From Pirellulales bacterium (lineage in GTDB: Bacteria; Planctomycetota; Planctomycetia; Pirellulales; JADZDJ01), in assembly GCA_020851115.1 (NCBI GenBank), contig JADZDJ010000177.1:1214-65213 (forward strand): a stretch of 64,000 nucleotides of DNA. The letters are read 5' to 3'. The notes under the pieces are model-generated. The model was not told the DNA's origin, ran no database searches, and saw only the letters and a list, made by a program, of their open reading frames with translations. This document shows, piece by piece, positions 8,270-37,436 of the stretch. The stretch's first letter is position 1, and each line of letters starts with the position of its first letter. The translations under genes and the position numbers were made by a program.

Positions 8270-8304
8270 TTGACATGGCCATGCGTTCTAGTGTACCGTA
8301 GTAT
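8270..8304 (+). promoter_or_regulatory. Putative sigma70 promoter of the XRE gene, overlapping a GTAC-N4-GTAT box
   Basis: TTGACA at 8270-8275, 18-bp spacer, TACCGT at 8294-8299; GTACCGTAGTAT at 8293-8304. Confidence 0.45.
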
Positions 8305-8320
8305 AAAGTTTGTCTCCCGG

Positions 8321-8866
8321 ATGCAACCGATGGCCGTTCTTTCCAAGCCTCTCGATTATGCCGCCAATCTGCGCCGGCTGATGGCGCGCGAGGGGTTGAC
8401 GCTGGCGGCCTTGGTCGCCCGGAGCGGGTTGAATCATCAGACCGTGAAAGGGCTTCTCAGCGGCACGAAGCGGTCGCATCCGCGGACGCTGCATCGGCTG
8501 GCCGGGGCGCTCGCAGTGCCCGTCGAGGAGTTGTTTCAAGACCCGGCGCTGCTGCGTCATCGGCTGTTCGATCGGCAGACGAATCCGGTGGTTGAAGAAA
8601 TCGTGGCTCGCGAGCCGCAATTGTTTCACGGGTGGACGTCGGCGGAGTTCGACGAATTGTACAGCCGCTTCGGGGTCGGCGGAGCGCTAACGTCCGAGGG
8701 CGCGCGCGAAGCCGCCAAGCAGATGAACCGCCGTCGCGAGCTACTCAACAAAGCGGCGGTGTTGTTGGAGTCGAACGAAGCGGAGTTACTGGAAGGGATG
8801 ATTGAAATGCTTTTCCGGCGGGCGACGGTGGATCTTCGGCCGATGGAATCGCAAAGAGGCAAGTGA
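8321..8866 (+). CDS. XRE-family HTH transcriptional regulator with a C-terminal domain
   Basis: NLRRLMAREGLTLAALVARSGLNHQTVKGLLSG..HPRTLHRLAGALAVPVEELF is a classic Cro/C1 HTH. ATG at 8321 or 8330. Confidence 0.85.
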   Translation: MQPMAVLSKPLDYAANLRRLMAREGLTLAALVARSGLNHQTVKGLLSGTKRSHPRTLHRLAGALAVPVEELFQDPALLRHRLFDRQTNPVVEEIVAREPQLFHGWTSAEFDELYSRFGVGGALTSEGAREAAKQMNRRRELLNKAAVLLESNEAELLEGMIEMLFRRATVDLRPMESQRGK

Positions 8867-8988: not shown

Positions 8989-9309
8989 CTAGACCTTCCT
9001 AGCCGCGCAGCGCCAGCGGGTGTTTTGGGCTTTGATTTGCACGTCGAGGATCGCCCACTCGGTGCTGTCGGGTTCGACGATTCGTTGGCCGACGGATGGC
9101 GCGAACGCGAAGTCGGCACGGGCGAGGTGCCAGAATACGTCGTTCTCGGTGTACGCGCCGGCGCTGTTCGCGACATCGCCCCAAAACATTTGACGCCGGA
9201 AGCCGCGAACGTCGGCGGCGAGCGACGTGCCGCCGCTAGTTTTGAGCACGATGAGAACGAGCGGATCGGCAACTTGAGGAATATCGTCGGGAGTGAAGCT
9301 TAGGGACAT
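8989..9309 (-). CDS. Phage head-closure / head-tail joining-like protein (gpFII-like), 106 aa
   Basis: Last gene of the head operon; beta-rich C-terminus PSVGQRIVEPDSTEWAILDV..RW resembles head-closure proteins. Confidence 0.55.
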   Translation of the reverse strand: MSLSFTPDDIPQVADPLVLIVLKTSGGTSLAADVRGFRRQMFWGDVANSAGAYTENDVFWHLARADFAFAPSVGQRIVEPDSTEWAILDVQIKAQNTRWRCAARKV

Positions 9310-9472
9310 GGCTTGGAGAATTGGAAGGAGCAATTGAACTGCCCAGATGCGAAATCGCGGATTGGACGAGCGCCAACGACCAGTCTTCACCGATCCGAAA
9401 GCGCATGGTTGGTGCATGCGTTGTCGTCGAGATGTCCTTTCGGCGTCTGGGCGTTTGGGCGATTCGATCTCA

Positions 9473-9685
9473 TTACGTTACGGCGCGCGATAGCACTTCG
9501 AACGGTTCGATACCGATGATTTTCGCATCGCACCAGTCGATCGTGCGCTGGAGCGAAGCAGCGTAGTCAGTCCACGAGATCATTTGGCCATTGATCGAGT
9601 AGGTGGGTTTTGGTTTTTCACGTAGATCGATCAATTGAGTGAGCGTTTGTTGGCGGATGAGTTGGAGTTGTTCGAGGTCGGACAT
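9473..9685 (-). CDS. gpW-like head completion (adaptor) protein, 70 aa
   Basis: Helix / beta-hairpin (PTYSINGQMISW) / helix layout and size of lambda gpW; located downstream of the capsid gene. Confidence 0.65.
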   Translation of the reverse strand: MSDLEQLQLIRQQTLTQLIDLREKPKPTYSINGQMISWTDYAASLQRTIDWCDAKIIGIEPFEVLSRAVT

Positions 9686-9788
9686 GGGAAGGTTCAGGGT
9701 TCAGGGTTTTGGAATTGGTGAAAGATGAAAGTGAGCCGAGGCAAGTTGATTCCTCGCTCGGCAAGCATCATTCGTCGATTTAAAGAGC

Positions 9789-9837
9789 CGCGGCCCGGTG
9801 GTGCTTGAAGAAGGCCGGCCACACCCACCGGGCCGCG
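9789..9837 (-). terminator. 13-bp perfect inverted repeat downstream of the major capsid gene (terminator or mRNA stabiliser)
   Basis: CGCGGCCCGGTGG (9789-9801) pairs with CCACCGGGCCGCG (9825-9837); 23-nt loop. Confidence 0.55.
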
Positions 9838-9888
9838 CGGGGAAAAGTTTGTTGAATGTTGTAGGAAACAGTTTGGTCGATGCATTGC

Positions 9889-11046
9889 TTAGCCGGTGTT
9901 CTTCACCACGTAGCGTGGGTTGATCACGGCGGCGGCGCCGCGCTCGCTGGCTTTGAAGCGAACGACGATGTCGCTGTTGAAATCGGCTTCACTGCCGACG
10001 GGAGATTGCGCGACGGTGATCGGCCAGTTTTCCATGTAAGCGAATGCTTTTTGAAAATCACCGATGAACCACCACTTTTTCGCGTCGGCCGCCGCCACGC
10101 CAGAGGCCATCACGCGGCGATAGGCCAGGCGGCTTTCGACGACGCGATAGTTGCCCAGCGGATTGGCAGCAATGGTGTTGGTCGCCGCGCCGGAAGGCGT
10201 GTAATGGATTTCGGCCGCGTTGAACACGCGATGGGCCGCGTGTCGATAAGCGGGCATCACCAGCACGGAATTGGTGCTCACCAGCACCGGTTCGCCGGTG
10301 TTCGGGTCGAGAATGTCGGCGAACATCTGTTCGGCGGCATCGACATCGGTCCAATCGACCAATTCGTTGCCGGTTTTCAGATTGATCCAAGGCGTGGCGG
10401 CTTGATAGGTGTTGTAGCTGGCGCCGCGCCACTTATAGTTGTTCGTGACGCCAATCAACAAATCGAGCAGCCGCTTTTCTTTGTTCAATCCGAGGATTTC
10501 GCCGACCTCCGCGGCACGGCTGAGCACCAGATGTGTGCGATCGAAAAAAATCGCCTCTTTCGTCACGGGAACGATGAACCCGCGTTTGGTCGTTGAGGGC
10601 GTTTCGATGTAATCCTCGCCGAAGCCCAGATGTGGATAGGGCATGCCGGGCGCGACTTCGTCGATCTGATCGGCGATGCGCGAGACGCCCGGAATTTTTT
10701 CGCCGTCGAGCCGCGTGGGAATCGTATCAACCAGCCGCGACATCACGAACGCTTCTTGGGTGTAGGCTTGCATGATCCGCGAGTAGATGACTTGACCCGT
10801 AATGTTGAGAAACGCGGTGACATCGACGCCGTCGGCTTCGAGCACCTGTACGCTGCCCGCGCTGCGAGGGTCGAGTTGCCGGACCCACGCGTGTCCGTCG
10901 GGAATCAGCGATTCGGCCAGATCGCGAATGCTGAAATCGTCGGGGCGCAAGTGCCGCTCGCGGAGAGCTTCGTTGAGATGCTCGACGGTTTTTCGCGGAC
11001 CTTCGAGCTGGTAGCGACGTTTGAGTTCTCGGTATTTGATGGACAT
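9889..11046 (-). CDS. Major capsid protein (HK97 fold, Mu gpT-like)
   Basis: 385 aa; EVAPGMPYP.LGFGEDYIE..TTKRGFIVPVTKEAIFFD, LVMPAY and a C-terminal VRFKASERGAAAVINPRYVVKN pattern; RBS GGAG; follows protease and cement genes. Confidence 0.88.
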   Translation of the reverse strand: MSIKYRELKRRYQLEGPRKTVEHLNEALRERHLRPDDFSIRDLAESLIPDGHAWVRQLDPRSAGSVQVLEADGVDVTAFLNITGQVIYSRIMQAYTQEAFVMSRLVDTIPTRLDGEKIPGVSRIADQIDEVAPGMPYPHLGFGEDYIETPSTTKRGFIVPVTKEAIFFDRTHLVLSRAAEVGEILGLNKEKRLLDLLIGVTNNYKWRGASYNTYQAATPWINLKTGNELVDWTDVDAAEQMFADILDPNTGEPVLVSTNSVLVMPAYRHAAHRVFNAAEIHYTPSGAATNTIAANPLGNYRVVESRLAYRRVMASGVAAADAKKWWFIGDFQKAFAYMENWPITVAQSPVGSEADFNSDIVVRFKASERGAAAVINPRYVVKNTG

Positions 11047-11124
11047 GGAATGATTCTCCGTTGAATAATGGAATCGATGGGCTGTCGTTCCCGCGCACGG
11101 CGCGAGAGCGAGGAGCGACGGGGT

Positions 11125-11595
11125 TTAGGCAGGCATCGGGCCGCCTTTCATCACGGTGCTGACGATATCGACGAGCACGCGCGTGGCGGCGGTGGTTGCT
11201 CGCTTGGCGCAGCGACCAATGGCCTGCGCGGTGCCGGCGACTTTGACGACGACTTGATCTTCCAGTTGGGTTCCGCTGGCGGCTTCATCGACGCCAATCA
11301 GGTTGCCGACTTCGAACGTGTCGGCCAGACAAGCGAATTCGAAGACGCCGCTGGTTGCCACGCGAATCGGCGCGATGTCGCCGGCGCGAGAACGCTGCAT
11401 GGCAACGCCGACAAAGAAGTCGTGAAAACCGGCTTGGTTGACCGATTCACTGCCGCCATCGGCGAGCATGCTCGCTGGCCGTGCGTCGTCGGTGTTGAGA
11501 TAGATGAGATCGCCAATTTCAATGACGGTTGCGGAATCGACCGCGAGCATGACGGGGTTGGTGTCGCCGTAACGCCAGCGTAGAACGTCGGACAT
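11125..11595 (-). CDS. Capsid cement / decoration protein
   Basis: IEIGDLIY, FVGVAM, IRVATSGVFEF, FEVGNLIG, AIGR: a DUF2190-like beta-tulip pattern; lies between protease and capsid genes. Confidence 0.75.
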   Translation of the reverse strand: MSDVLRWRYGDTNPVMLAVDSATVIEIGDLIYLNTDDARPASMLADGGSESVNQAGFHDFFVGVAMQRSRAGDIAPIRVATSGVFEFACLADTFEVGNLIGVDEAASGTQLEDQVVVKVAGTAQAIGRCAKRATTAATRVLVDIVSTVMKGGPMPA

Positions 11596-11680
11596 GGGAG
11601 GCTCCTTGGGAAGCAGGGTTGAGGGGTTGGGTTAGGGGTGACCAAGGTTTGGACAATTCGGAGGAAAAGCGGTTTGGGGT

Positions 11681-12487
11681 TCAGCGGGTGATTGCTGTTG
11701 CGAACGAGCGGGCGTCGTCGCATGGATGCGGCTGGACGGCGTGTTGATCGCGCGAGGTTGGGCGCGGGAATTGTTTGGCTTCGACGAGCGACATCTTGAG
11801 TTCGGCGAGTTCGGCGCGCAGGTCGGCAAGTTCGGCGGCTTCGGATCGCCGGGAAGCGGTTTGCCCGGCGGCGCTTTCCTGCAGATCATCGCCTGCATCG
11901 GAGCTCTCTCCGTGCGAAGGAGAGGAAGCGAACGACGGCGAGGGTGTCGCGGAAAAGGATGCAATGGCTGGCGGCAGTTCGTCGGATTGAATCGCGGCGC
12001 TGGCCGATTCGAATAGACCGCGGGTGGTGGCCGGGTCGGCGACCAGATCGACGCTATGGACGCGGACGATTTCCTCGACGTGAGTGGTGTCGTCTTCGCG
12101 ACGAAGCCGAGCTTGGACATTGTGCGAGAAGCCGACGTTTTCCGGGGCATGTTCGGCATCCCAAGCGAGTTGTTCGGCAAGCGGATGTTTCGGATTGAAG
12201 TGGAAATCGCCGAACAGCCCCTCGCCAGTGCGATGTTGAACGTTGCGAATGACGCCGATGCGTTCTTGATAATCGCGTGGCGTCAGCGGATGGCCTTTCG
12301 GATGGTTCACGTTCACTTTCGCCCCTTCGTACAAACCAAGGGCGCGGGCGAGCGCATCGGCCGAATACTCACGGCCATTTCGCGAGCGCAAGCCGAGGAT
12401 TTTGATGCCGCGGATGACGCCGAGTGTGCGATCGACGCGCAGCGAAATTCCGCGAGAGTCGGTGAATTCTTGGAGCAGATCGGACAT
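11681..12487 (-). CDS. Prohead maturation protease with a short scaffold-like C-terminus
   Basis: SRNGREY, NVNHP (His), VGFSHN (Ser), SVDLVADPAT (Asp), then FES and a short coil ELADLRAELAELK. Confidence 0.82.
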   Translation of the reverse strand: MSDLLQEFTDSRGISLRVDRTLGVIRGIKILGLRSRNGREYSADALARALGLYEGAKVNVNHPKGHPLTPRDYQERIGVIRNVQHRTGEGLFGDFHFNPKHPLAEQLAWDAEHAPENVGFSHNVQARLRREDDTTHVEEIVRVHSVDLVADPATTRGLFESASAAIQSDELPPAIASFSATPSPSFASSPSHGESSDAGDDLQESAAGQTASRRSEAAELADLRAELAELKMSLVEAKQFPRPTSRDQHAVQPHPCDDARSFATAITR

Positions 12488-12569
12488 GGGAATTCCTGAG
12501 GGGCTTGAGGCTGGGGTCTGGAGCTAGAGAAATGAGTTGGTGAAGTCATTACGAGGTGAAGGGGCAACG

Positions 12570-12635
12570 GCAACGAAAAAAGCCTGCGGTGGAACGCGTT
12601 GGTTCCACGGCAGGCTCGATGTTTTCGATGCCCTC
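12570..12635 (-). terminator. Intra-operon intrinsic terminator / attenuator (leader element copy 1)
   Basis: Minus strand: GAGGGCATCGAAAACATCG-AGCCTGC-C-GTGGAAC-CAACGC-GTTCCAC-C-GCAGGCT-TTTTTCGTTGC. Confidence 0.75.
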
Positions 12636-12638
12636 GTT

Positions 12639-12675
12639 GTCAGTGGTCAGTGGTCAGTTGTGAGTGGTCAGTAGG
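12639..12675. repeat. Heptamer tandem repeat (GTCAGTG)n
   Basis: gtcagtg gtcagtg gtcagtt gtgagtg gtcagta. Confidence 0.75.
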
Positions 12676-12755
12676 CGATCGGTGGTAGGCCGTTGTGTAC
12701 GTTTGTGGCAACCGACAACGGAAAATGGCCCACAGACCGTACTCTTCGATCGATG

Positions 12756-12941
12756 CTATTTCTCCGTTTTTTCGACGACGCGACGGATGTGTTGGAGCAC
12801 GCCGTCTTGGATGGTGATTTCGAGCGCCACTTTGCCATAGAAGCCGCTGCGAAGCGATTCGGTCAGTAGTGCCGCCAATGCGATCTTGATTTGTTTCAGT
12901 TTCACTTCATTGCCGGGAGTGGTGATGGTGGGTGTTTTCAT
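12756..12941 (-). CDS. Small DUF2292/YezD-like protein, 61 aa
   Basis: GFYGKVALEITIQDGVLQHIRRVVEKTEK matches the 'yG.v.i.vqdG.i..i...ek' pattern. Confidence 0.6.
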   Translation of the reverse strand: MKTPTITTPGNEVKLKQIKIALAALLTESLRSGFYGKVALEITIQDGVLQHIRRVVEKTEK

Positions 12942-13122
12942 GGCCGTGATGTTGATTGGAAGACGAAGAATGAGTCGGAACTTGTATTTTCGACAACATT
13001 TTTGAACCGGAGGAAGCCGGGGCGGCAAGGGAGAACTGTCTCTCGAACACCCTTGCTATTTCTGCTGCTTGCAGTTGTTTTGGTTGCGGCCATACAGCCG
13101 CGCCGTGCCGAAGTGGTTTCAT

Positions 13123-14490
13123 CTACGTTCGATGGGTCGCGAAATTGGCTTGCTCTTGGTCGTAGTCCAGCCCGGCAAGTTGGCTCCATGTCTGCGGCGA
13201 CAAGATGCCGGCGATGTGTTCGATCTTGCGCCGTTGGGCATCTTTCAGTTGATCGCGCATGCACGGCGATGGTGGAGCGGCTTGAATGTCGATCGTACGG
13301 CGCACGTCGGCCGGCAACAAACCGGCTTCGATCGCCGCGCCGACGGCCCGCCACATCACCGGCAAATCGTCGCGCACTTGTTCGGCTTGCAGTCGCTCGA
13401 ACATCCGCATGGCTGGTCCTTCGGCCACCATCGTCGATGCATAATTGGAATTCGAGGCGTCGGAGGTGAGCATGAATTCCGGCATCACCAACCGGCTGGC
13501 GATGGCCCGCAGTTCGGCTTGCAAGACGGTGACAAAGTTGGAGGCGTCGATGCCGGAGGCGGGAAAGTCGTACTCGATGCCGGCGTGGGCGTCTAGAATC
13601 GTGCCGGGGCCGTAGCGTCGAATCGGAGCCGTGGAACCGCCCGCGTTGGCCGTCGGCGGTACACAGTCGGTGCCGTTGAGCACGAATTGCTGCACGCCGG
13701 CGGCAGTTCCCTGGCGGTGCTTGCGAATCAGGGCAATCGCCGATTGAATTTCGGCCACCACGCTCATATTCCGCAGCAGTTTTTCGGCGCGACGCAAGTT
13801 CTTTCGCACCGGATAGAACAGCGGCAGTCCACGCCGAACATTGGCATCGACATTCGCCTTGCGATGCTGAATCTCGGCGGCATCGATCAAACGGCCGTCC
13901 ACAAAATAGCCGCGGACGGTTTCCACATCGTCGCGATCGGTAAGAATTCCTAGCCGGGCCATCGAGTCGGAAGCCCGATCGGAGGGAGTGATGATTTGAT
14001 CGGGTTCGATGAATCGCACTCGCAACGTGCCGTCGCGACTGGAAAAGAATCGCAAGAAGGCTTCGCCATCACGATCGCGCCTGCGGACGATTTCCTGCTG
14101 GCGGCGATGCCAACCGTTCAGTTCGATAAACTCGTCGATCGTCCGTTGCACCTCGGCGACCAATTCCGACCGCGCCCGTTGGCCCTTGCGAACCGTGGCG
14201 CGATAGGTGTGTCCGGGGCCAACAATGTAACTGACGCGGTTTTCGTGGCCGTTGATGGCAAATTCGTTTTCCAAGGCAAGCAAGCGGCATTGGCCGCGAA
14301 TTTCGGCAAGCTGTGCGTCGCTGTTGGGGCAGCCGTGCGCGATGGCGGCCGAATCGCCCGCGGCCAGCGGCAGCCACGTCTGGCTGTCGTCCCAATAAGG
14401 TTCGCGGGGATCGACAACGCTGTCCCACCACTGGCTATAGGATTCGCGAAGCTGGTCGGCCAGGCGGTCGAGGGGAGAAAGGCGGTTCAT
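13123..14490 (-). CDS. Phage portal protein
   Basis: 455 aa; R.L..ENEFAING..NRVSYIVG.G, RDGEAFLR, RFIEPDQI, EIQHRK...RRGLP, LRAIASRLVMPEFMLTSDASNSNYAST, GILSPQT; first gene of the head operon. Confidence 0.88.
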   Translation of the reverse strand: MNRLSPLDRLADQLRESYSQWWDSVVDPREPYWDDSQTWLPLAAGDSAAIAHGCPNSDAQLAEIRGQCRLLALENEFAINGHENRVSYIVGPGHTYRATVRKGQRARSELVAEVQRTIDEFIELNGWHRRQQEIVRRRDRDGEAFLRFFSSRDGTLRVRFIEPDQIITPSDRASDSMARLGILTDRDDVETVRGYFVDGRLIDAAEIQHRKANVDANVRRGLPLFYPVRKNLRRAEKLLRNMSVVAEIQSAIALIRKHRQGTAAGVQQFVLNGTDCVPPTANAGGSTAPIRRYGPGTILDAHAGIEYDFPASGIDASNFVTVLQAELRAIASRLVMPEFMLTSDASNSNYASTMVAEGPAMRMFERLQAEQVRDDLPVMWRAVGAAIEAGLLPADVRRTIDIQAAPPSPCMRDQLKDAQRRKIEHIAGILSPQTWSQLAGLDYDQEQANFATHRT

Positions 14491-14540
14491 CAGATTGATT
14501 GGTCGAGAGTGGATAGAAGCATACGATCAGTTTACGTTAG

Positions 14541-14577
14541 GTACATTGTTATATACTGAACTAATGTACTAAATCAA
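14541..14577 (-). promoter_or_regulatory. Putative promoter of the head operon with a LexA-like operator
   Basis: AT-rich patch; minus strand reads TTGATT-16-TATATA with AGTACATTAGTTCA in the spacer. Inverted repeat GTACATT (14541-14547) / AATGTAC (14563-14569). Confidence 0.55.
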
Positions 14578-14946
14578 GACCCGATTGCAAAAATTTTCAT
14601 GGTCGCCGCGCAAGTGGTGGACGGGCAAACAGTTACGGCGAGAAACTTTTTTACCTCGAAGAACGGCGGGGCGGCATCGCGCGTGTCGTCGTTGCAAAGA
14701 CTCATCCTTGCGATGCTCAAGACTGCGGCCAGGCGACACCGGCATGAAATCGCCTTCGAAATCGCCGCAAATCCGCCAGGTGTCAATGGTACGATTGAAG
14801 CACCGATTCGATCCTGCCCGTCAGAATAGCCGTAGCTCAGGTCGATTTCGTGGATCTATGGGGCAAACGCAAGCCCGGCGATGAGATCAGGCGTCGAGAC
14901 GGTGGTCCGCGACAACGGTTTTCAGCGCGGCACCTTTGTGGAAACG

Positions 14947-20462: not shown

Positions 20463-21659
20463 TTACGCCGAGCGAGAGATTAGCGAGATACTCGGCACGA
20501 GCGGCTTTTCGCCACAGGCTCCGGAGCGGCAGCCGGCGGGATGCGCCGTGACTACGGGCAGTGAAGGCAGCACTGGATGCCGATCGAGAATATCCTTGCT
20601 GCCCGCGGCGGAGTTGTCGTCGTGCGAGATGGAATCTTGCGGCTTCTTGGAACCAAAAATCAGCGCTCGTGCTGCGCCCCACATGCCGCGGAGTGAGCCG
20701 AACGTGGCGTTCACGGCCGAGGGTTCGTAGCCGCAGTGAACCATGCAATCTTGGCAGCGGCGATTGCCGCTCGCGCGACCGTAGGAGTTCCAATCGGTCG
20801 TGTCGAGCAGTTCCTGGAACGATTGCACATAGCCATCGTCGAGCAGGTAGCAAGGCTTCTGCCAGCCGAAGATGTTGTAGGTGGGATTGCCCCACGGAGT
20901 GCATTCGAGATCCCAATTGCCTTGTAAAAATTCCAAGAACAACGGCGAATGGTTGAATCGCCAGCCGCGATTGCGTTTGCCGAGCAACTGCCGGAACAAC
21001 CGAATCGTTTTCTGGCGATGCAAGAAATTGTCTTGATCGGGCGCTTTCGCGTAGCTGTAGCCCGGCGAGAGCATCATACCTTCGACGCCAAGCCGCATCA
21101 TCGCATCGAAGAACGCTCGCAACCGCTTTGGATTGGCGTCGTTGTACAGGGTCGTATTCGTCGTCACACGAAACTCGGCGTCAATTGCGGCTTTCGTCGC
21201 GCGGACGGCGACGTCGTAAACACCATCGCGACAGACGGCCAAATCGTGCTCGTCGCGCGGGCCGTCGAGGTGGATCGAGAACGAAAAGTATTTCGACGGC
21301 TTGAATCGCGGCAAAGCTTCTTCGAGCTTGATGGCGTTCGTACACAGATAGACGTACTTCTTCCGCGCGACGAGGCCCGCGACGATTTCGTCGATTTGCG
21401 GATGGAGCAGCGGCTCGCCGCCGGGAATCGAGACCACCGGCGCGCCGCATTCTTCGGCAGCCCGAATGCATTGCTCTGGCGTAAGCTGCTTGCGCAGAAT
21501 TTCGGGCGGATGCTGAATCTTGCCGCAGCCAGCGCAGGCCAAATTGCACCGCATCAGCGGTTCGAGCATCAGCACCAGCGGATACCGCTTCACCCCGCGC
21601 AGCCGTTTGGCCAACACATAGCTGGCGACGGTCCACATTTGTGAGAGCGGAACGGACAT
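20463..21659 (-). CDS. hpnH: Adenosyl-hopene transferase (hopanoid radical SAM enzyme)
   Basis: YPLVLMLEPL.RCNLACAGCGKI, IPGGEPLLH, CTPWGNPT, GWQKPCYLL, CMVHCGYE. Confidence 0.95.
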   Translation of the reverse strand: MSVPLSQMWTVASYVLAKRLRGVKRYPLVLMLEPLMRCNLACAGCGKIQHPPEILRKQLTPEQCIRAAEECGAPVVSIPGGEPLLHPQIDEIVAGLVARKKYVYLCTNAIKLEEALPRFKPSKYFSFSIHLDGPRDEHDLAVCRDGVYDVAVRATKAAIDAEFRVTTNTTLYNDANPKRLRAFFDAMMRLGVEGMMLSPGYSYAKAPDQDNFLHRQKTIRLFRQLLGKRNRGWRFNHSPLFLEFLQGNWDLECTPWGNPTYNIFGWQKPCYLLDDGYVQSFQELLDTTDWNSYGRASGNRRCQDCMVHCGYEPSAVNATFGSLRGMWGAARALIFGSKKPQDSISHDDNSAAGSKDILDRHPVLPSLPVVTAHPAGCRSGACGEKPLVPSISLISRSA

Positions 21660-21690
21660 GAGAGAGGATTCGGGGGTCAGGATTTAGGGT

Positions 21691-23820
21691 TCAGGAATGC
21701 AAATTGCAATTTTCCACTTGCATTTTCCAATCTGCCGCTTTGGTCCAGCGCGAAAGGGCGATCAGTGGAAAGTAGATGCGGTAGTAGTGGTAGCGCAAGT
21801 AAAACACGCGCGGGAAGCCGGTGCCGGTGAATTCGGTTTCGTCCCAGGTGCCGTCGAGATTTTGGCGATTGACCAGATAATCGACGGCGCGGAGAGCGGC
21901 AGGGTGGTTATGCATGCCTGCGGACACCAAGCCGAGTAGCGCCCACGCGGTTTGCGAAGGCGTTTCGCGCCCTTGGCCGCGGAGCGTCGGATCGGCGTAG
22001 CTGTCGGGGGATTCGCCCCAGCCGCCAGATGGTTGCTGGTGGGCGATCAGCCAATTCGCGGCGGCCACAATCATCGGATCGTGCGACGATATGCCGACCG
22101 CCGTCAAGCCGACGATGGCTTGCCACGTGCCGTAGATGTAATTCACGCCCCAGCGGCCAAACCAACTGCCGTCGGGTTCTTGGGTGCGTCGGAGGTAATC
22201 GACGGCGCGATCGATCGCCCCATCGCCAAGCCGCTTGCCCATGTTCGCTAGCGATTCGATCACGCGGGCCGCCAGATCGGGCGAACTGGGGTCGATCATC
22301 GCGTTGTGATCGGCGAATGGCACATGGCAGAGAAACTCGGCGGTGTTGTCGCAGTCGAAAGCGCCCCAACCGCCGTCTTTATTTTGCATCGCGAGCAACC
22401 ACTGCAAGCCGCGTTGCGTGGCCCCGTTGATGTCGTCGAGCATCATCGCTTTGCGCCTGGCATCGGGCAGAGTTGCGGCCGTCGTTTCGGCAACCAATCG
22501 CAGCGGCGGCGGCAGTGAAGGCGAGCGCGCGTGTGGCTCGGCGAACGATTCACGCAGTGCGAGCATGACCATTGCCGTATCGTCGCAATCGGGGTAGTAC
22601 GGATTCCCAAATTCAAAGCACCAGCCGCCGGCTTGGGCTTTCACCGTCGTGGCCCAATCGCCGCGAGTGCGAATTTCCTGGGCGAGCAGCCATTGCACGC
22701 CCCGTTCGGCCGCCGGATGATCGGCGTCGACGCCGCTGTCGGCCAGCGCACGCAGGGTGATGGCAGTATCCCAGACGGGCGACTTGCACGGCTGCAACCG
22801 GGCGGAATGCTCGGCTTCAATCACGAGGCCCCACAGGCGCTCGCGGCAGTATTTCATTTCAGGCGATTCATCGCCGTGGCCAAGACAGCGCAGCGCAACA
22901 ATACTCCAAATCATTGGCGGAAAGATCGCTCCCAGGCCGTCGCTGCCGACAAAGCGATCGACCATCCACCGCTTGGCGACGTTGACCGCCTTCTTTCGCA
23001 GCGGCATCAGCCGATGCTGTTGCAAGAACTTGAAGGTTCGGTCGGTCCAGTGGAAAAAATGTTCCCAGCTAATCAGCCGCTTGCTGTGTTTGAGGCCGGG
23101 GCAGCGCGGATACGGCCACTGGAGCGGATCACTGAGGAACAGTTCGCGAATGCCGCGATCCGGTTCGATCTTGCGCACCGGCTGAAACGCCGACATGATC
23201 GACAGTGGCACGAGAATCGTCCGCGACCAGGCGCTAATCGAATAGAGGTTTACGGGGAACCACTTCGGCAGCAGCAAGAACTCTGGCGGCACGTTCGGGC
23301 AGGCATCGTAGGGGATTTGGCCCAGGAATGCCAAGTAAAATCGAGTAAAGCTATTAACCGCGTCGGCGCCGCCGTTGGCTAAAATTGCCGCGCGGGCGCG
23401 CTGCATGTATTCGGCCGATGGATCGTGGCCAGTGAGCTTGAGCGAGAAATAGGCCTTCACGCTCGCGCTGATGTCGATTTCCCCGCCAGGGTATTGAGTC
23501 CAATAGCCTTCGGAAGTCTGCTTTTCGAGCAAATACTGTACGCACTTCTTCGCCAACGGCGTACGCTCTTCACCCAGAAACGCCAACAACAACAAGAACT
23601 CACTTTCGAGGATGGTGTCGCCTTCCAGTTCCGCAACCCAGTAGCCCTCAGGGTGCTGCTGCGAGATCAGCCATTGCTGGGTGCGAAAAATCGCTTGTCG
23701 CAGCGAGCCGCCAAAATTTTCGGGGGTCGCTTGCGGGTGCGGAAGATGGAGAGCGGAAACAGGCAAATCGCCTGGAAGACTCGTGCTGGAGGTGCTCGCG
23801 GCGAGTGATTCTTGCAACAT
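21691..23820 (-). CDS. shc: Squalene-hopene cyclase
   Basis: QW repeats, SPVWDTA, catalytic YPDCDDTA, GSWFGRWGVNYIYGT, FTGTGFPRVFYLRYH. Confidence 0.96.
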   Translation of the reverse strand: MLQESLAASTSSTSLPGDLPVSALHLPHPQATPENFGGSLRQAIFRTQQWLISQQHPEGYWVAELEGDTILESEFLLLLAFLGEERTPLAKKCVQYLLEKQTSEGYWTQYPGGEIDISASVKAYFSLKLTGHDPSAEYMQRARAAILANGGADAVNSFTRFYLAFLGQIPYDACPNVPPEFLLLPKWFPVNLYSISAWSRTILVPLSIMSAFQPVRKIEPDRGIRELFLSDPLQWPYPRCPGLKHSKRLISWEHFFHWTDRTFKFLQQHRLMPLRKKAVNVAKRWMVDRFVGSDGLGAIFPPMIWSIVALRCLGHGDESPEMKYCRERLWGLVIEAEHSARLQPCKSPVWDTAITLRALADSGVDADHPAAERGVQWLLAQEIRTRGDWATTVKAQAGGWCFEFGNPYYPDCDDTAMVMLALRESFAEPHARSPSLPPPLRLVAETTAATLPDARRKAMMLDDINGATQRGLQWLLAMQNKDGGWGAFDCDNTAEFLCHVPFADHNAMIDPSSPDLAARVIESLANMGKRLGDGAIDRAVDYLRRTQEPDGSWFGRWGVNYIYGTWQAIVGLTAVGISSHDPMIVAAANWLIAHQQPSGGWGESPDSYADPTLRGQGRETPSQTAWALLGLVSAGMHNHPAALRAVDYLVNRQNLDGTWDETEFTGTGFPRVFYLRYHYYRIYFPLIALSRWTKAADWKMQVENCNLHS

Positions 23821-24279
23821 ACGGTGTCTTCCCTGACACGCGGTGGGTGAGTGCGGGCAAGTAAATGTGCGCTTCACGCTGGGCCGTAAAGGCAAAAGCG
23901 GGAAAGCTGGACTGCAGAGGAGTGCGCTTTCCAACGCCTTGGAGACGAGAAGCTTAAGTCAATGCGCGCGGCCAGACAATACCAGTGAAACGGCGCAACT
24001 TAGGAAATCGTCATCAAATGCTAGCAACGGGCGTAAGCTGGCGAAGCCGCGTAAAGTTTAACGCGCGGCCTCGCATAATTTTTGCACGCAGTCGAGTCGC
24101 GATAGGTTATCCATTACGAGAATTCAAACCCAAGCAAGCCGCATGTAGTAACTACGATCAACCCATATTCGCTGCGCAACGAAGCCAAGTGGATCGGAAG
24201 ACCAAAAAGATTTTTTCATCGACCGACGAAAATTCCAACGCTCACCCGAGCATCCGGCAGCCTCGATCGGACACGCGTA

Positions 24280-31453: not shown

Positions 31454-31612
31454 TCGAGCTTCACGCGCAATTGCTTGGCCGATCGGTTCGGCGAGGTTTC
31501 GTCTGGCGACAAAACACGCTCGCGTCGATGCCATCGTCTCGGCGCAACCTCTGTTGGTACAGATGTTTACATCACTAACTGAAAATATTCTCTCCTGATC
31601 TGAATTTTCTGG

Positions 31613-31640
31613 TTGACTTGCGTCTCGATCTTTGTATGAT
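31613..31640 (+). promoter_or_regulatory. Putative sigma70 promoter of island 2
   Basis: TTGACT (31613-31618), 16-bp spacer, TATGAT (31635-31640) in an AT-rich patch; GTAC-AGAT-GTTT at 31557-31568. Confidence 0.6.
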
Positions 31641-31688
31641 CGCTAGTACAGTAAACAACTGAATGGTATTTGTGAGAGCCGCTGAGTC

Positions 31689-31748
31689 GAGCGGTATCAG
31701 ATCGAAGCCCGTCACCGGACGCATCCGGCGACGGGCTTTTTTCGTTGC
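31689..31748 (+). terminator. 5'-leader intrinsic terminator / attenuator (leader element copy 2)
   Basis: GAGCGGTATCAGATCG-AAGCCCGTC-A-CCGGA-CGCA-TCCGG-C-GACGGGCTT-TTTTCGTTGC, located between the promoter and the first ORF. Confidence 0.78.
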
Positions 31749-31804
31749 TGCTCCCGCGAAATATCCCGTTTCCGCCACCAACCCTCCTCAACAGGAAATT
31801 CTCC

Positions 31805-32209
31805 ATGTCCGTCCAAATCTCACCCCTCGTTCATGTTCCGTCGTTGCGCGAACTGCTCGAACTGGTTGCCATGTTGCGCGACTTTCGCCAGCCGCTCGGT
31901 TCGTCCGAAGGACTGCGTAGCGCGATCGACATGCTGCTCAAGCTCGGCCAGGCGCTCGGCGTCGATCCGACCTTACTCGCCAGGCTGCGTTCGCTGTCTG
32001 AAGATCCGCATCTCTTCGAACTTGCGCTCGCCGTGCTGCGCTATGCGTTGAGCTTCAGGAATCCAACGTCGCAATCGACCATTTCGCTCGAGTCGTCAAG
32101 CGATACGAATCAGGCGGAATTTTCCTCGCAATCACTTGGCTTCGCGGAATGGTTCACATTGCTCATGCAACTCTTCGAACTGTTGCGACGTTTGCGAAAG
32201 GACGCGTAG
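31805..32209 (+). CDS. Hypothetical helical protein with an amphipathic/hydrophobic C-terminal helix and basic tail
   Basis: RBS AGGA; ends GFAEWFTLLMQLFELLRRLRKDA. Confidence 0.65.
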   Translation: MSVQISPLVHVPSLRELLELVAMLRDFRQPLGSSEGLRSAIDMLLKLGQALGVDPTLLARLRSLSEDPHLFELALAVLRYALSFRNPTSQSTISLESSSDTNQAEFSSQSLGFAEWFTLLMQLFELLRRLRKDA

Positions 32210-32306
32210 TTCGCACTCTCCTCGCCGATCTACCCCGCGGCAATGGATCTGTTTGACTGTCGATCGCCGTTTCCTGGCTCCTGAACCCTGAACCCTCATC
32301 TCTCCC

Positions 32307-33305
32307 ATGCCACACCTCCCACCGTTTCGTATTGAATCTACCTTCACCACGCTGGCCGAAACCATCGACTGGGGGCTGCTTGCCTACCACATTCCCGATC
32401 ACTGGAAGCAAACTCGCGGCAGCGGGGTGAAGGTCGCCGTGCTCGACACCGGCATCGACGAAGCCCATCCTGATCTCGTCGAAGCTCTGGACGATGCCCG
32501 CGATTTTACTCGTAGCCGCTTCGGCCCGATCGATCGCCACGGCCACGGCACGCATACCGCCGGCACGATTGGCGCGCGTCAGAATACTGTCGGCGTGGTC
32601 GGCGTTGCTCCCGATTGTCGCCTGCTCGTGGGCAAAGTGCTGGGCGATTCTGGCGCAGGGCCGACGTCGGCCGTTGCCGCCGGCATCGACTGGGCTTGCG
32701 ACGCAGGGGCCAACATCCTCAGTCTGTCGCTCGGCTCGGCGCAGCCCGAACGCGAACTGCTGGCGGTCGTTGAACGCGCCGCCTCGAAGGGCAAATTCAT
32801 CATCGCCGCCGCCGGCAACGACGGCCGCGACAATAGCGTGAACTATCCCGCGCGATGGCGCGACACTATCGCAGTAGCCGCCGTGAATCGCGACGGCCAA
32901 GTGACACGTTTCTCCTCGCGTGGCCCGGAGGTTGATATCGCCGCCCCGGGTGAAGACATCCTCTCCACTTGGCTGCACGGCGGCTACGCAAAACTCTCCG
33001 GCACCAGCATGGCGACGCCGTTTGTCTCTGGCGTGGTGGCGCTCGCAGTCTCTTTGCATCGCAATTTGCAGCGCCCCGAAACGCCGCTTCGCAACGTCGC
33101 CGACCTGCGCGAGCAGCTTCGACGCACCGCCACCGATGCCGGCGCCACCGGTCAAGATCCAAGCTACGGCTGGGGCCTAATCAACCCCGATGCGCTGCTG
33201 CAAGCCGAAGAGGCGACTGCACCGCCAGCGCCGCCAGCCGATGCGCCGGAAATCTCGGTGCCGGGAGTCTGGATCTGGATCCCCGGAGGCAAAGTTCGCT
33301 CTTAA
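32307..33305 (+). CDS. S8 subtilisin-like serine protease with no signal peptide (ISP-like)
   Basis: VAVLDTGID, HGHGTHTAGTI, AAAGN, SGTSMATP; short N-terminal extension HLPPF. Confidence 0.93.
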   Translation: MPHLPPFRIESTFTTLAETIDWGLLAYHIPDHWKQTRGSGVKVAVLDTGIDEAHPDLVEALDDARDFTRSRFGPIDRHGHGTHTAGTIGARQNTVGVVGVAPDCRLLVGKVLGDSGAGPTSAVAAGIDWACDAGANILSLSLGSAQPERELLAVVERAASKGKFIIAAAGNDGRDNSVNYPARWRDTIAVAAVNRDGQVTRFSSRGPEVDIAAPGEDILSTWLHGGYAKLSGTSMATPFVSGVVALAVSLHRNLQRPETPLRNVADLREQLRRTATDAGATGQDPSYGWGLINPDALLQAEEATAPPAPPADAPEISVPGVWIWIPGGKVRS

Positions 33306-33494
33306 AAAGCTACAACGAGAATCTAGATGGATACCACTAGGGAACGTGGTTGAAAGAGATGGCTACCGAAAGGAAATGCGCGAAAAAGACGCTCTAGCAG
33401 CATCGCGATGCAATCTCGTTCCGATTTGATCGATCCGGCTTTCAGCCCCGTTCATCGGTTTTCTCACGATTTCACAGTTCGAACAGAACTTAAC

Positions 33495-35033
33495 ATGATC
33501 ATGCCGCCAATTTTTCTTATCGCCGTTGTCGCGATCGCACCGGCCGACGAAGTTCGCGCGGCGGCAGCCGACGTCGAGCGTTTGCCGCACGAAGCACAAG
33601 CCGGCGTGCGCTATCTTACGCTCTACAACATCGAACCTTCGCGGCGGATGCAAGCCTTGCGGGTTGTCAACTACACACTCAACGCGCTCAGTCGAACGCG
33701 AACCATCAGTCACGTCACGTCGATTTCGCCAACGCTTGTGCGATTCAGCGTCGCGCAATTTGCCCCGCGGCCCGACGAATTCACGGCTTGGTTCAATGCC
33801 TGGGAAAAGCTCGCGGAGAGCGACCCGTATCTTCACCTTCGGACTGAAGTTGTCGAGCAGGGGCGCGGATCGAGGGGTGAAGGGCAAGATACCGTCAACA
33901 TCCATCGTTCATTCCTCGACTCACGATCCTCGCACCTCATTGTATCCACCGACGGCGGTTGGACCGATCTGGCTGCCGCCGCACGACTGCGCAGCGCCAC
34001 TCACTCGATTGGCGCACTGCTGCGGGCCGATTATTTTGTCGCTACTGTCACCGCTGCGCCGCAATACTACGAATTGGCCGGCATTCCCGATAACGAAACC
34101 GACTTCGTAAAATCTCTCGGCCTGGATCGCAACGTCGTCGATCGCCTGCGAGCCAATGCCGGCGCCAATGTCATCGTCAGCGGCGTTACCAGCAAACCGC
34201 GACGCATTATTTGGTCGCAAGGTCCGCTGGGTGGCGTCTATGTCACGCTCGACGTGCAGCAAGTCGACGCCGAGCGCGATCCGCTGCGGCGACCGGTTAG
34301 CGTGGAGGGGCGAAGTTGGACGGCTGAGGAGCGAGAGAATCCAAAGACAACTCTCTCTTCCCACTCTCGTCGATCTTCGACGCTTGCCTTCCGCTTCGAC
34401 GCCAGCGAGTGGTTCGCCGTCGCGCCCAACGGCCTGTGGCGAACCGCGCTATTCAACTCGGCTGGCAAACGCCAAGACGCCGTCCCCGATCGAGTCGCCA
34501 AAGACACTTCCGATCCGCACGGCGACGGGATCGTCGTGCCGATGATCTCGTGCATTCGTTGCCACCGAGAATCTGGCCTGCGTCCGTTCGCCGACGATCA
34601 AACGCGCCTGCTTGCCGGCCGGGTCGATCTATTCAGCGACGATCCGAAAATCGTCCAGCGGGCCGCCGAGTTCTACGACGAGCCGCGATTGCAACGACAG
34701 ATGAATTTCGACCGCGAAACGTATGCGGCTGCCCTCGATCGAATCGCCGGTGGATTGAAACCTGACGAACTTGCCGACGATCTCGCGGCCGTCGTTCGTA
34801 ACTACGCCTATTTACCCATCACGCCCGACGTTGCCGCCCGCGAAGTCGGCTTGTCGCACGAAGCCTTTCGCGCGGCGCTTGCCACGACGCAAGACCCCAT
34901 CATCCTCACGCTGCTCGAAGGACGCCCCGTGCTGCGCGGCCAATGGGATTCCAGCTTCGCCGAGGCGGCGCTGGTCGCGTCAGAATACTTACCATCGAGG
35001 CACAGAGGCGCCGAGAAGACACTCCCAGAATAA
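33495..35033 (+). CDS. Exported protein with a single CxxCH (putative c-type cytochrome)
   Basis: Hydrophobic N-terminus; FDASEW...PNGLW..LFN..GKRQD..P..VA.D motif followed by SCIRCH. Confidence 0.7.
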   Translation: MIMPPIFLIAVVAIAPADEVRAAAADVERLPHEAQAGVRYLTLYNIEPSRRMQALRVVNYTLNALSRTRTISHVTSISPTLVRFSVAQFAPRPDEFTAWFNAWEKLAESDPYLHLRTEVVEQGRGSRGEGQDTVNIHRSFLDSRSSHLIVSTDGGWTDLAAAARLRSATHSIGALLRADYFVATVTAAPQYYELAGIPDNETDFVKSLGLDRNVVDRLRANAGANVIVSGVTSKPRRIIWSQGPLGGVYVTLDVQQVDAERDPLRRPVSVEGRSWTAEERENPKTTLSSHSRRSSTLAFRFDASEWFAVAPNGLWRTALFNSAGKRQDAVPDRVAKDTSDPHGDGIVVPMISCIRCHRESGLRPFADDQTRLLAGRVDLFSDDPKIVQRAAEFYDEPRLQRQMNFDRETYAAALDRIAGGLKPDELADDLAAVVRNYAYLPITPDVAAREVGLSHEAFRAALATTQDPIILTLLEGRPVLRGQWDSSFAEAALVASEYLPSRHRGAEKTLPE

Positions 35034-35172
35034 TTCGGCACGAGTGCCAAGGTCGACCAACCATCGATCATTCCCATCAAGAGTTCTGTTCGGCTCCGCG
35101 CCTCTGTGTCTCGGTGGTGAGAAACATGTCGTAACGTCATTTCGATTTCCTCTTATCCCAGGAGCAGTTCCC

Positions 35173-35655
35173 ATGAAACGCAAATTGATTGTCTCGCTTG
35201 TCGCTGTTGTCTCGATTGTTTCAAACTCCACGGTTCGTGCCGCCTGCCATGGGGTGCGCGTGCGACACGTGCAACATCATCACGCGACAACAACAAAAGT
35301 CGTCGTACCGTTTGCCGTACCCGTTGCCGTCCCCGTGGCAGTTGCGTCGCCGTATTTCTACGGCTATTCGCAGTTTGCCGTTGATCCGTCCACAGCAGTG
35401 ATCGATCCGCGCGCCCATGACGCCGCGGTTTCTTCGGCGTCCAGAGCGCAATCGCCGATCGCCCAACACTGCGCCACTTGCCACAGCAGCGTCTCGCCCG
35501 CCGGAGAATTGTCGCTTCAGCACGTCGAAAAGCTATCGCTCGCCGACCGCCTGGCCGCCATTCGCGCCGTGCTCAGTCGCCGCATGCCGAAAGGTGCAAA
35601 ACTCGACGACGACCAACTGCGCGGCGTCGTTGAGGAATTAGCGAATTACGACTGA
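35173..35655 (+). CDS. Small exported mono-heme cytochrome c-like protein
   Basis: RBS GGAG; signal peptide MKRKLIVSLVAVVSIV..VRA; HCATCH ... RMPK (distal Met). Confidence 0.72.
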   Translation: MKRKLIVSLVAVVSIVSNSTVRAACHGVRVRHVQHHHATTTKVVVPFAVPVAVPVAVASPYFYGYSQFAVDPSTAVIDPRAHDAAVSSASRAQSPIAQHCATCHSSVSPAGELSLQHVEKLSLADRLAAIRAVLSRRMPKGAKLDDDQLRGVVEELANYD

Positions 35656-35794: not shown

Positions 35795-35977
35795 ATGAAC
35801 GATCAAGCTTCAAATCCGACGAATCGCAGTGGCATGAACCCATCACGCCCCCTGCGTAAAATCACGATCCCCGCTCTCTTCCAACTCGTCGTCGAGTGCC
35901 GCGACGAGGATCAGCAGCGCAAGCTGTACGAACAATTCATTGCCGCCGGCCATAAGTGCAAAGTAATGACGCTGTGA
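35795..35977 (+). CDS. 60-aa protein resembling the C-terminal domain of phage ParB-like proteins
   Basis: FQLVVECRDEDQQRKLYEQFIAAGHKCKVMTL, directly upstream of the ABC-GNAT gene. Confidence 0.55.
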   Translation: MNDQASNPTNRSGMNPSRPLRKITIPALFQLVVECRDEDQQRKLYEQFIAAGHKCKVMTL

Positions 35978-36074: not shown

Positions 36075-37436
36075 ATGCTCCACCAGATCCAACTCGCCTG
36101 CCCGCTCTGCGACTCCTTTCGCGTACAGCAAATCGCCGGCATGTTCGATGTGCCACTCGACGAAAAGCTGACCGAAGAATTTACGGTCGAAATCCCGGCG
36201 CTCGATTCATTTCCCTGGCAAATCGGCCTCATCGTTGGCCCTTCGGGCAGCGGTAAAACGACGCTCGCCAGATCATTGTTTGGCAAGCGATTCATCGAAC
36301 ACATTCGGTGGCCAAACGATCGTGCCGTCATCGATTGCATCGACCAAGGAATCCAGGTTTCGGGGTACAGAATTCAAGAAAACCAGCACGCGAAATCCAC
36401 AGGGGATTCCAAGATGTCGATTCGCGACACGATCAACCTACTGACAGCCGTCGGCTTCAGCTCGCCACCGTCGTGGATCAAACCCTATCACGTCCTTAGT
36501 CGCGGCGAGCGCTTCCGATGCGATCTGGCGAGAGCACTGGCAGCAGCCGCGACAACTTCTCAATTCTTACCGAACACCGAACCTCGACCCCTGAACCCGC
36601 TCGTGGCCTTCGACGAATTTACCAGCCTCGTCGATCGTCGCGTCGCCCGTTTTGGATCGGCCGCAATCGCCAAAGCCATCCACTCTGGCCGTGTTCGGAC
36701 GCAGTTTGTCGCCGTCACTTGTCACTACGACGTCCTCGATTGGCTTGCGCCCGATTGGGTGATCGATATGGCAACGCGCGAATTCGTGCGGAGGTCGCTT
36801 CGTCGACGACCCATTCCACTCGAAGTCCAACGCTGCCACCGCTCTGAATGGCGACGTTTTGCGCGTCATCACTATCTGAACGGCGCGTTGAATCCGTCGG
36901 CGCAATGCTACGTGGCGCTGTGGCGCGACAGGTCAGTGGTCAATGACCACTTGCCATTCGCAACTGACGAGAGGCCGTTGGCAATGGCCTCTGAAACAGA
37001 TCTCCATCCAGTGGCGCTGTGCGCAACTCTGCCGATCATGGGTCGCAAAAATCACCGGCGCATTACGCGCCTCGTCACGCTTCCCGACTTTCAAGGCTTG
37101 GGCATTGGCATGCGACTAGCCGAAACGGTGGCCGAGTTCCATCGCGCCCAAGGTCAGCGTGTGAACATCACCGGCAGCCATCCAAGCCTCATCGCCCATT
37201 GCCGGCGCTCGCCGAAGTGGCGCGTTGTGCAAGTCCGAAAAACCGGCGCTGGCCGACATTCCGATTTCGGCGCTCACTGCCGCACCAGCATCGGCCGGGC
37301 CGTCGTTTCATTTGAGTATGAGGGTTCAGGGTTCGGGGTCCAGCAGAGATGGAAAGAATTCTTTGCGAGGATTAATTCTTCCCCAAACGACCCGACATTG
37401 GAAATCACGTACACAAAGCCAGCTTTGGTCAGTTGA
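36075..37436 (+). CDS. ABC-type ATPase / GNAT (Mom-like) acetyltransferase fusion
   Basis: Walker A GPSGSGKT, LSRGE signature, Walker B VAFDEFTS, VTCHYD; then FARHHYL and RITRLVTLPDFQGLGIG (acetyl-CoA motif). No TM segments. Confidence 0.85.
   Translation: MLHQIQLACPLCDSFRVQQIAGMFDVPLDEKLTEEFTVEIPALDSFPWQIGLIVGPSGSGKTTLARSLFGKRFIEHIRWPNDRAVIDCIDQGIQVSGYRIQENQHAKSTGDSKMSIRDTINLLTAVGFSSPPSWIKPYHVLSRGERFRCDLARALAAAATTSQFLPNTEPRPLNPLVAFDEFTSLVDRRVARFGSAAIAKAIHSGRVRTQFVAVTCHYDVLDWLAPDWVIDMATREFVRRSLRRRPIPLEVQRCHRSEWRRFARHHYLNGALNPSAQCYVALWRDRSVVNDHLPFATDERPLAMASETDLHPVALCATLPIMGRKNHRRITRLVTLPDFQGLGIGMRLAETVAEFHRAQGQRVNITGSHPSLIAHCRRSPKWRVVQVRKTGAGRHSDFGAHCRTSIGRAVVSFEYEGSGFGVQQRWKEFFARINSSPNDPTLEITYTKPALVS

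Follow-up and report, generated by a model that had tools for sequence, protein, structure and literature searches.

A phage-derived head-gene cluster maintained across the Pirellulales, a candidate gene transfer agent-like system

A 64,000-nucleotide stretch of a Pirellulales bacterium genome (assembly GCA_020851115.1, contig JADZDJ010000177.1, positions 1,214 to 65,213; the whole stretch is hereafter the window) carries a seven-gene operon encoding phage head proteins. Rather than being a head-only system in its own right, this operon forms the capsid-building core of a cluster with order-wide spread. Judging from sequence, the window genes are probably the core of an old phage-derived set which would function as a domesticated gene transfer agent (GTA)-like particle system packaging host DNA, a reading to which we give somewhat better than an even chance. 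An earlier reading of the window, made from its letters alone (the first-pass annotation), had proposed a host-maintained, domesticated phage module. This view is supported by an order-wide single-copy distribution, purifying selection, location at several loci and host flanks.

The head operon of the window

The operon consists of seven co-oriented open reading frames (ORFs) on the minus strand, at window 8989-14490, all free of stops as had been claimed. In the direction of transcription, and followed by a convergent regulator gene, its features are:

13123..14490, minus strand: portal protein, 455 aa (PF05136, E 5.5e-22; phrog_21, E 5e-36)
12756..12941, minus strand: conserved basic protein, 61 aa, directly upstream of the internal leader, with homologues in relatives; candidate regulator
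12576..12632, minus strand: internal leader in front of the protease gene, a GG(T/C)ATC-N-GAGCC box overlapping an intrinsic-terminator-like hairpin with a U tail
11681..12487, minus strand: prohead protease, an N-terminal part of ~160 aa plus a variable C-terminal tail (structure model, conserved residues)
11125..11595, minus strand: head decoration/cement protein, 156 aa (PF09956, E 3e-6; phrog_122, E 4e-6)
9889..11046, minus strand: major capsid protein, HK97-type, 385 aa (PF25209, E 9e-16)
9473..9685, minus strand: conserved 70-aa gene following the capsid gene in most loci; putative head-completion/adaptor protein, by position only
8989..9306, minus strand: gpFII-like head-closure protein, N-terminal 105 aa only (PF05354, E 0.003, below cut-off)
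8270..8866, plus strand: XRE regulator, convergent with the operon (helix-turn-helix families)

The portal, protease, cement and capsid labels of the first-pass annotation were confirmed. The 70-aa gene, which it had called gpW-like, has no family match, and the FII-like match is weak and covers a half-length gene that aligns to the first half of 212-221-aa proteins in relatives. Sequence-based family search returned no match for the protease. The model of its N-terminal 166 aa (pLDDT 81) has T4 gp21 as top Foldseek match (E 1e-4, TM 0.58), and residues H62 and S121 are invariant across 15 homologues; the variable C-terminal tail is scaffold-like and may serve as scaffold. The capsid model is of low confidence (pLDDT 50.6), and its best PDB fold matches are all HK97-fold shells, none reaching E<=0.001; PDB sequence searches gave nothing useful. 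The 61-aa protein shares 50% identity with the small gene of relatives and has three more homologues at 71-79%, each annotated as hypothetical, with no match in a Pfam search. A supposed resemblance to DUF2292 proved unsupported (best E 1.6, in one of seven relatives).

Host genes flank the operon, with the XRE regulator, an exonuclease and pepT on one side and LptA/D-like, kdsC and kdsD genes on the other, as previously described. Within the annotation of window 1-31 kb, none of the genes next to the operon has a terminase, tail, integrase, replication or lysis function, again in agreement with the first-pass annotation. The XRE gene lies at the same place in five relatives (G002, G003, G004, G007 and G010) and in 8 of 61 IMG/VR loci, and this recurrent downstream neighbour is possibly part of the particle system. 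The hopanoid genes hpnH and squalene-hopene cyclase, at window 20463-23934, directly flank the capsid half of the cluster in G006.

An order-wide cluster

Maps of the cluster in related genomes (34 capsid loci plus another 20 terminase/portal regions) and in the 61 IMG/VR loci share a single common order. The cluster starts with variable front genes (an S8 or trypsin-like protease and others), followed by a ParB-like gene, an ABC-ATPase-GNAT fusion, terS (phrog_4102), terL (phrog_38) and the portal gene. After the portal come the 61-aa gene, protease, cement, capsid, a variable insert, the 70-aa gene and the FII-like gene. In some genomes only, a tail section is present, with a tail-completion-like gene, a gene without assignment, a weak major-tail match, a chaperone-like gene, a very short tape-measure-like ORF recognized by inspection and a distal gene with phage-protein look-alikes. 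In G007, G004, G027 and G039 the cement gene went undetected at its place next to the capsid gene, after the protease gene; in the last two, a different ORF stands there. By its domains, the ABC-GNAT gene likely belongs to the GNAT-ABC ATPase fusions which, according to PMC7824862, are predicted to modify DNA bases.

The first-pass annotation had suggested searching related genomes for the gene order, and the cluster proved to be present in most of the sampled Pirellulales. The capsid gene was found in 32 of 41 close genomes (28 of the 33 high-quality ones), the portal gene likewise in 32/41, and the capsid gene in 105 of 151 Pirellulales genomes, all at least 93% complete. It is nearly always single copy, with no internal stop in the capsid matches across the 151 genomes. 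Among the 105 carriers, 97 have a close capsid lineage (46-90% identity) and 8 only a lineage at 36-39%. Presence is family-structured (20/20, 18/19, 10/10, 8/8 and 8/8, versus 0/19 in another family). TerL (E<=1e-60) accompanies the capsid in 91 of the 97 close-lineage carriers, and its Walker A/B and nuclease motifs are intact in the aligned copies of relatives; the other six are the genome under study, G025 and G030 (both with partial matches), G244, G271 and G285. Across a phylum sample of 161, matches besides this genome were limited to one at 39% within the order, four at 30-32% in one other family, and one marginal.

The capsid matched none of 50,697 phage records. TerL matches 298 phage records, the best at ~35% identity over ~90% of its length, with RcapMu and a phage carrying a transposase among them. 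Where records with the same capsid bear a name, they belong to Pirellulales or unclassified Planctomycetota, Aeoliella being one example. A literature search at the level of listings and abstract starts, subscription papers and supplements being out of reach, returned no description of this Pirellulales element.

The 36-39% lineage was observed in two genera of family f24 (L266-L267 in G276; L119 in G033), with the same gene order and a PF18906 tail tube. The same type of tube follows a close-lineage head in G026 and in several IMG/VR loci, and its occurrence behind heads of both lineages suggests tail swaps.

Maintenance by the host

Codon-position counts, made by hand on alignments, support purifying selection on capsid and portal. 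Compared with its closest relative, the capsid DNA differs at 211 of 1158 nt, with 164, 35 and 12 differences at codon positions 3, 1 and 2, respectively. The portal DNA, compared with that of G001 over nt 202-810 (203 codons), shows 90, 28 and 13 differences at the same positions.

The cluster is also dispersed in several genomes. Its halves lie apart on one contig by 12 kb (G010), 32 kb (G007), 39 kb (G003 and G006), 43 kb (G250) and 870 kb (G291), and in the closed genome G035 the cluster occupies three loci. With halves 12-870 kb apart, the cluster's own genes would, by distance, not be fully packaged in these split genomes; in compact copies this would depend on head size. Around the copies of three near-closed genomes (G250, G321 and G276), 129 ORFs of at least 170 aa were collected, and 73 were scanned after removal of overlaps and shadow frames; among ORFs of this size, none belonged to an integrase, transposase, replication or lysin family. 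The neighbours are host genes such as those for EF-G and EF-P and thyA. Congeners agree in identity values, gene losses and split points. Presence is clade-structured, with likeness at genus level; at family level, the similarity ranks in a capsid query (see below) were not congruent.

A displaced front half and a missing terminase

The first-pass annotation, in describing a head-only system, had met a reduced local form of the cluster. The front half occupies 31.6-37.4 kb of the window, on the plus strand and inverted relative to the operon, where it had escaped notice. It comprises:

31613..31740, plus strand: 5' leader of the displaced front half, with a sigma-70-like promoter (TTGACT-16-TATGAT), two boxes and a terminator-like hairpin, as read from sequence
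within 31745..35655, plus strand: 154-aa protein, first front-module gene; homologues upstream of terS-terL in relatives
32307-33305, plus strand: S8 peptidase (Pfam); homologues upstream of terS-terL in relatives
33408-35033, plus strand: CxxCH protein, 541 aa (Pfam); homologues upstream of terS-terL in relatives
35173-35655, plus strand: cytochrome-c-like protein, 160 aa (Pfam)
35837..35976, plus strand: ParB-like gene stub, C-terminal ~46 aa only (tblastn with the 166-182-aa proteins of relatives, in which the family was identified)
36075..37436, plus strand: ABC-ATPase-GNAT fusion (phrog_11143, E 2e-86; 53% identity to the G002 copy), which precedes terS in relatives

Two CxxCH (heme-c-like) proteins, at window 33408-35655, are thus found under a cluster leader; in several families, the larger one recurs ahead of terS-terL.

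In this genus, a rearrangement probably broke the cluster apart. A single inversion of about 14.6-37.5 kb would join the end of the front half to the start of the portal gene, with terS-terL missing at the join. G001, which belongs to the same genus, has the same Lpt-portal junction, and its terS-terL genes form an orphan pair among host genes. In the assembly under study (5.2 Mb, 304 contigs), searches with PF03237, PF05876, PF03354, phrog_38 and the TerL and terS of relatives returned no ortholog of either gene. Neither was found at the ancestral site, which is mid-contig, or next to the M28 peptidase gene, the neighbour of terL in G001. Run contigs aligned to the window and to the terS-terL pair of G001 yielded short, undiagnostic pieces only. 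Families and proteins of relatives likewise retrieved no tail gene from this assembly. A 28% terminase match on contig C173 was rejected as the genome's own TerL, being the gpA-type terminase of a separate lambda-like fragment. This lambda-type prophage fragment (L259:1-4272) fills the 4.3-kb contig with the gpA-type terminase, a small gene, a portal and an S49-like protease.

The first-pass annotation had also raised the possibility of a terminase encoded elsewhere. This holds for the lineage, as seen from the 91 of 97 carriers and the orphan pair of G001, and fails for this assembly, where the suggested search for orphan terL and tail loci was negative. A control search for rpoB missed the gene in 3 of 41 genomes (1 of the 33 high-quality ones), which makes an assembly gap a plausible cause. 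Whether terS-terL lies in unassembled DNA of this genome or not, we consider about equally likely.

These data bear on a reading in which the order-wide element is GTA-like and the copy of this genome has recently been disabled, terS-terL having been lost after the rearrangement and the rest being undecayed. The empty mid-contig ancestral site, the failure to find the pair beside the M28 peptidase gene or elsewhere, and the ParB-like stub are as such a loss would leave them. Against this, the rpoB misses make a gap plausible in an assembly of 304 contigs, and the selection measured against a congener averages older history and dates a recent loss neither way. We regard recent disabling as rather improbable.

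A conserved repeat-plus-terminator leader

The box GG(T/C)ATC-N-GAGCC, often doubled, lies between the 61-aa gene and the protease in 17 of 19 aligned regions, its last copy doubling as the 5' arm of a hairpin with a U run behind it. As for the other two rows, the copy of G001 lies outside the compared slice, and none was found in G022. The hairpin shows compensatory changes, 8 of 12 consensus pairs being changed on both sides among 14 sequences, and folding z-scores are -5.4 for the internal leader and -5.5 for that of the front half, whose 5' leader layout is identical in G037 and G020. Two leader patterns each gave one match in the 5.2-Mb assembly, at window 12576-12632 and 31693-31740. A looser pattern matched in 71 of 151 genomes, versus 10 control matches in 9, so that some of these matches arise by chance; in 16 genomes, a copy lies 5-8.5 kb upstream of terL. 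No Rfam match was obtained, and a generic terminator scan missed the hairpin. Folding gave no support to the idea that each box forms a small bulged hairpin excluding the terminator.

Just upstream of the portal gene, window 14520-14580 is AT-rich, has a TTGATT...TATAAC look and contains GTAC words, which recur near 8290 and 31560-31650. It was not flagged by a generic scan and may be a new promoter or operator.

Leader copies are also found outside the cluster. Eight of 14 fetched copies were read, and by inspection five precede toxin/immunity-like pairs, one cluster front genes and two host genes. The five pairs are located at L273:1328-4513 (G037:C31), L285:1468-6267 (G241:C17), L277:1313-4502, L281:1420-3255 and L282:7538-9617, and Pfam backs two of them (SMI1/SUKH-ankyrin; AHH nuclease plus RraB). 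Two ORFs of the toxin-like loci share a W-x-HPR-x-PN-x-GWF stretch, which may, as a guess, be a loading signal. The one toxin-like N-terminus that was searched occurs in 2 of 41 genomes, this one not among them. In G230, which has no capsid match, a leader stands with front-module genes (L275:8292-10409, contig C16), possibly a remnant after loss of the head genes.

Tail loss and possible functions of a predicted particle

Of 33 high-quality genomes overall, 16 have the distal tail gene, whereas it was found in none of the 10 members of this genome's family, one of them a closed genome. Tail loss is a lineage trait, and the tailless particle envisaged in the first-pass annotation suits this family. 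In several relatives, the first gene after the 5' leader (L272:8200-8530; L092:110-370) encodes a small membrane-anchored coiled-coil protein of holin-like shape; one copy had no Pfam match, and none was seen after the leader in this genome.

Such losses could indicate a domesticated particle whose job is other than gene transfer, namely a portal-bearing shell with protein cargo (e.g., interbacterial toxins), a decoy or a compartment. DNA packaging would then be dispensable, which would explain why the tail and, in this genome, the terminase were lost. Head genes kept through repeated loss of tail genes, and capsid and portal genes under selection where no terminase is detectable, would agree with this function, as would the toxin/immunity-like pairs behind five of the eight outside leaders and the stretch common to two of their ORFs. 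A TerL with intact motifs is nevertheless retained (91/97 carriers), the one toxin-like N-terminus searched is in two of 41 genomes and not in this one, and two leader copies precede ordinary host genes. Non-transfer particles of this kind are unlikely in our view, if still worth weighing.

Proposed mechanism

For the favoured GTA-like system, the following sequence of events is proposed. The promoter-leader units would normally terminate transcription. In some cells, read-through would be achieved via a regulator, for which the 61-aa protein is a candidate; as it is encoded just before the internal leader, positive feedback would result. Both this role of the protein and attenuation by the leader are inferred. 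The portal, protease/scaffold and capsid proteins would assemble a prohead, to be filled with DNA by the terminase, which among phage enzymes is closest to those of Mu type. Chromosomal DNA is the expected cargo because the element has no replicon with which to amplify itself. The ABC-GNAT protein might modify the packaged DNA. Head-completion proteins would then close the head, a short tail being added only in lineages that keep tail genes. The copy of this genome would package DNA only if terS-terL lies in unassembled DNA; otherwise it would make empty or protein-filled heads, or its decay would have just begun.

Several points weigh against this proposal. Particles, cargo and transfer are predictions. 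The tail is patchy (16/33) and the main lineage showed no complete tape measure, so that the proposal does not explain how families without a tail would deliver DNA. Lysis genes were not found either, neither as a lysin family in the 73 scanned ORFs nor next to the operon. In this assembly, terS, terL and tail genes are missing, only a stub is left of the ParB-like gene, and the FII-like gene has half its usual length. In addition, the cluster occurs on 61 IMG/VR 'viral' contigs, and some genomes have second, more phage-like copies, such as G014:C10 with MuF and tape-measure genes. Finally, a capsid query from family f11 ranks a congener first (84%) and next two genomes of the window's family (79% and 78%), ahead of the 18 other f11 members, not all of which could be ranked under the strict cut-off used. 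Differences in rate could produce this order.

The viral contigs, the divergent second copies and the f11 ranking, as well as the 36-39% lineage in family f24 and the unrelated lambda-type fragment of this genome, could also reflect a selfish element, i.e., a widespread defective prophage or capsid-forming satellite re-acquired or mobilized by helper phages. Such an origin is very unlikely given that no integrase, primase or transposase lies near the copies checked, that halves are up to 870 kb apart, and that the cluster is nearly fixed within families, with host flanks common to the family. A composite view can also be drawn, in which an independently domesticated system with a small-protein/terminator leader switch forms tail-less heads in several families, loadable with co-regulated toxin-like proteins plus DNA, and in which the selected portal-bearing shell of this genome has shed its terminase on the way from GTA to protein compartment. 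As a whole, it is quite doubtful.

Comparison with known systems

In PMC9662315, GTA viriforms are defined by caudoviricete-derived proteins, virion-like particles, mostly random host DNA and full endogenization, often over several loci, together with incomplete packaging of their own genes, vertical inheritance with congruent phylogenies, and DNA delivery to other cells. Two of these features are found here: caudoviricete-derived proteins (portal, protease, cement and capsid in this genome, terS/terL in relatives) and full endogenization (host flanks, no mobility genes in 73 ORFs, splits of 12-870 kb). As far as that definition goes, the system is a GTA candidate and not a member.

With GTA viriforms and the RcGTA type (Rhodogtaviriformidae), it shares caudoviricete-derived head genes that are fixed order-wide in the host chromosome, commonly at more than one locus, and lack genes for replication or integration. 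It differs from RcGTA in its phylum, its lambda-family portal, its T4-gp21-fold protease and its phrog_38 TerL nearest to Mu-type phages, and also in repeated tail loss, ParB-like and ABC-GNAT genes in front, and terminator-type leaders. RcGTA TerL groups with P22-like headful enzymes, according to PMC7947584. The Mu-type affinity of the nearest phage TerLs points to a probable origin separate from Rhodogtaviriformidae.

The nearest TerL matches (~35% over ~90% length) are from transposable phages of the Mu-like group (RcapMu, Curvibacter phage TJ1). In Mu, packaging is by the headful, with host DNA included. In contrast to these phages, the Pirellulales copies checked have no transposase nearby, their portal is of the lambda family and their capsid is unmatched in the phage collection. 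Capsid-forming satellites (cf-PICI) possess head and packaging genes and no tail, as in the Pirellulales system, which differs by its order-wide single copy, its distant split loci and the absence of any integrase, AlpA or primase among the genes seen. Linked integrase or transposase and replication genes, the marks of a prophage or satellite, were not found in window 1-31 kb or among ORFs of at least 170 aa in the three near-closed relatives. Encapsulins, which are among the weak fold matches of the capsid model, similarly are HK97-fold shells kept by the host. Encapsulin loci are not known to have a portal, prohead protease, cement or terminase, and here a portal is found in 32 of 41 genomes and TerL in 91 of 97 carriers.

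The leader arrangement recalls, by analogy only, the conAn antitermination system of PMC8191782, with a small protein gene and then an RNA element heading a long operon. ConAn1 domains are given there as PF17362, whereas the 61-aa protein has no Pfam match and the Pirellulales leader is short. This leader offers a direct handle for switching the system on and locating its other loci, and cultured carriers exist (Aeoliella records), which makes the question testable. Repeated tail loss with head and motor kept raises the question of how heads that have no tail would deliver DNA, if they do so at all. PMC9662315 lists functional GTAs of alphaproteobacteria, of one sulfate reducer, of one methanogen and of one spirochete; if true, the order-wide candidate described here would add an independent GTA domestication, in the Planctomycetota.

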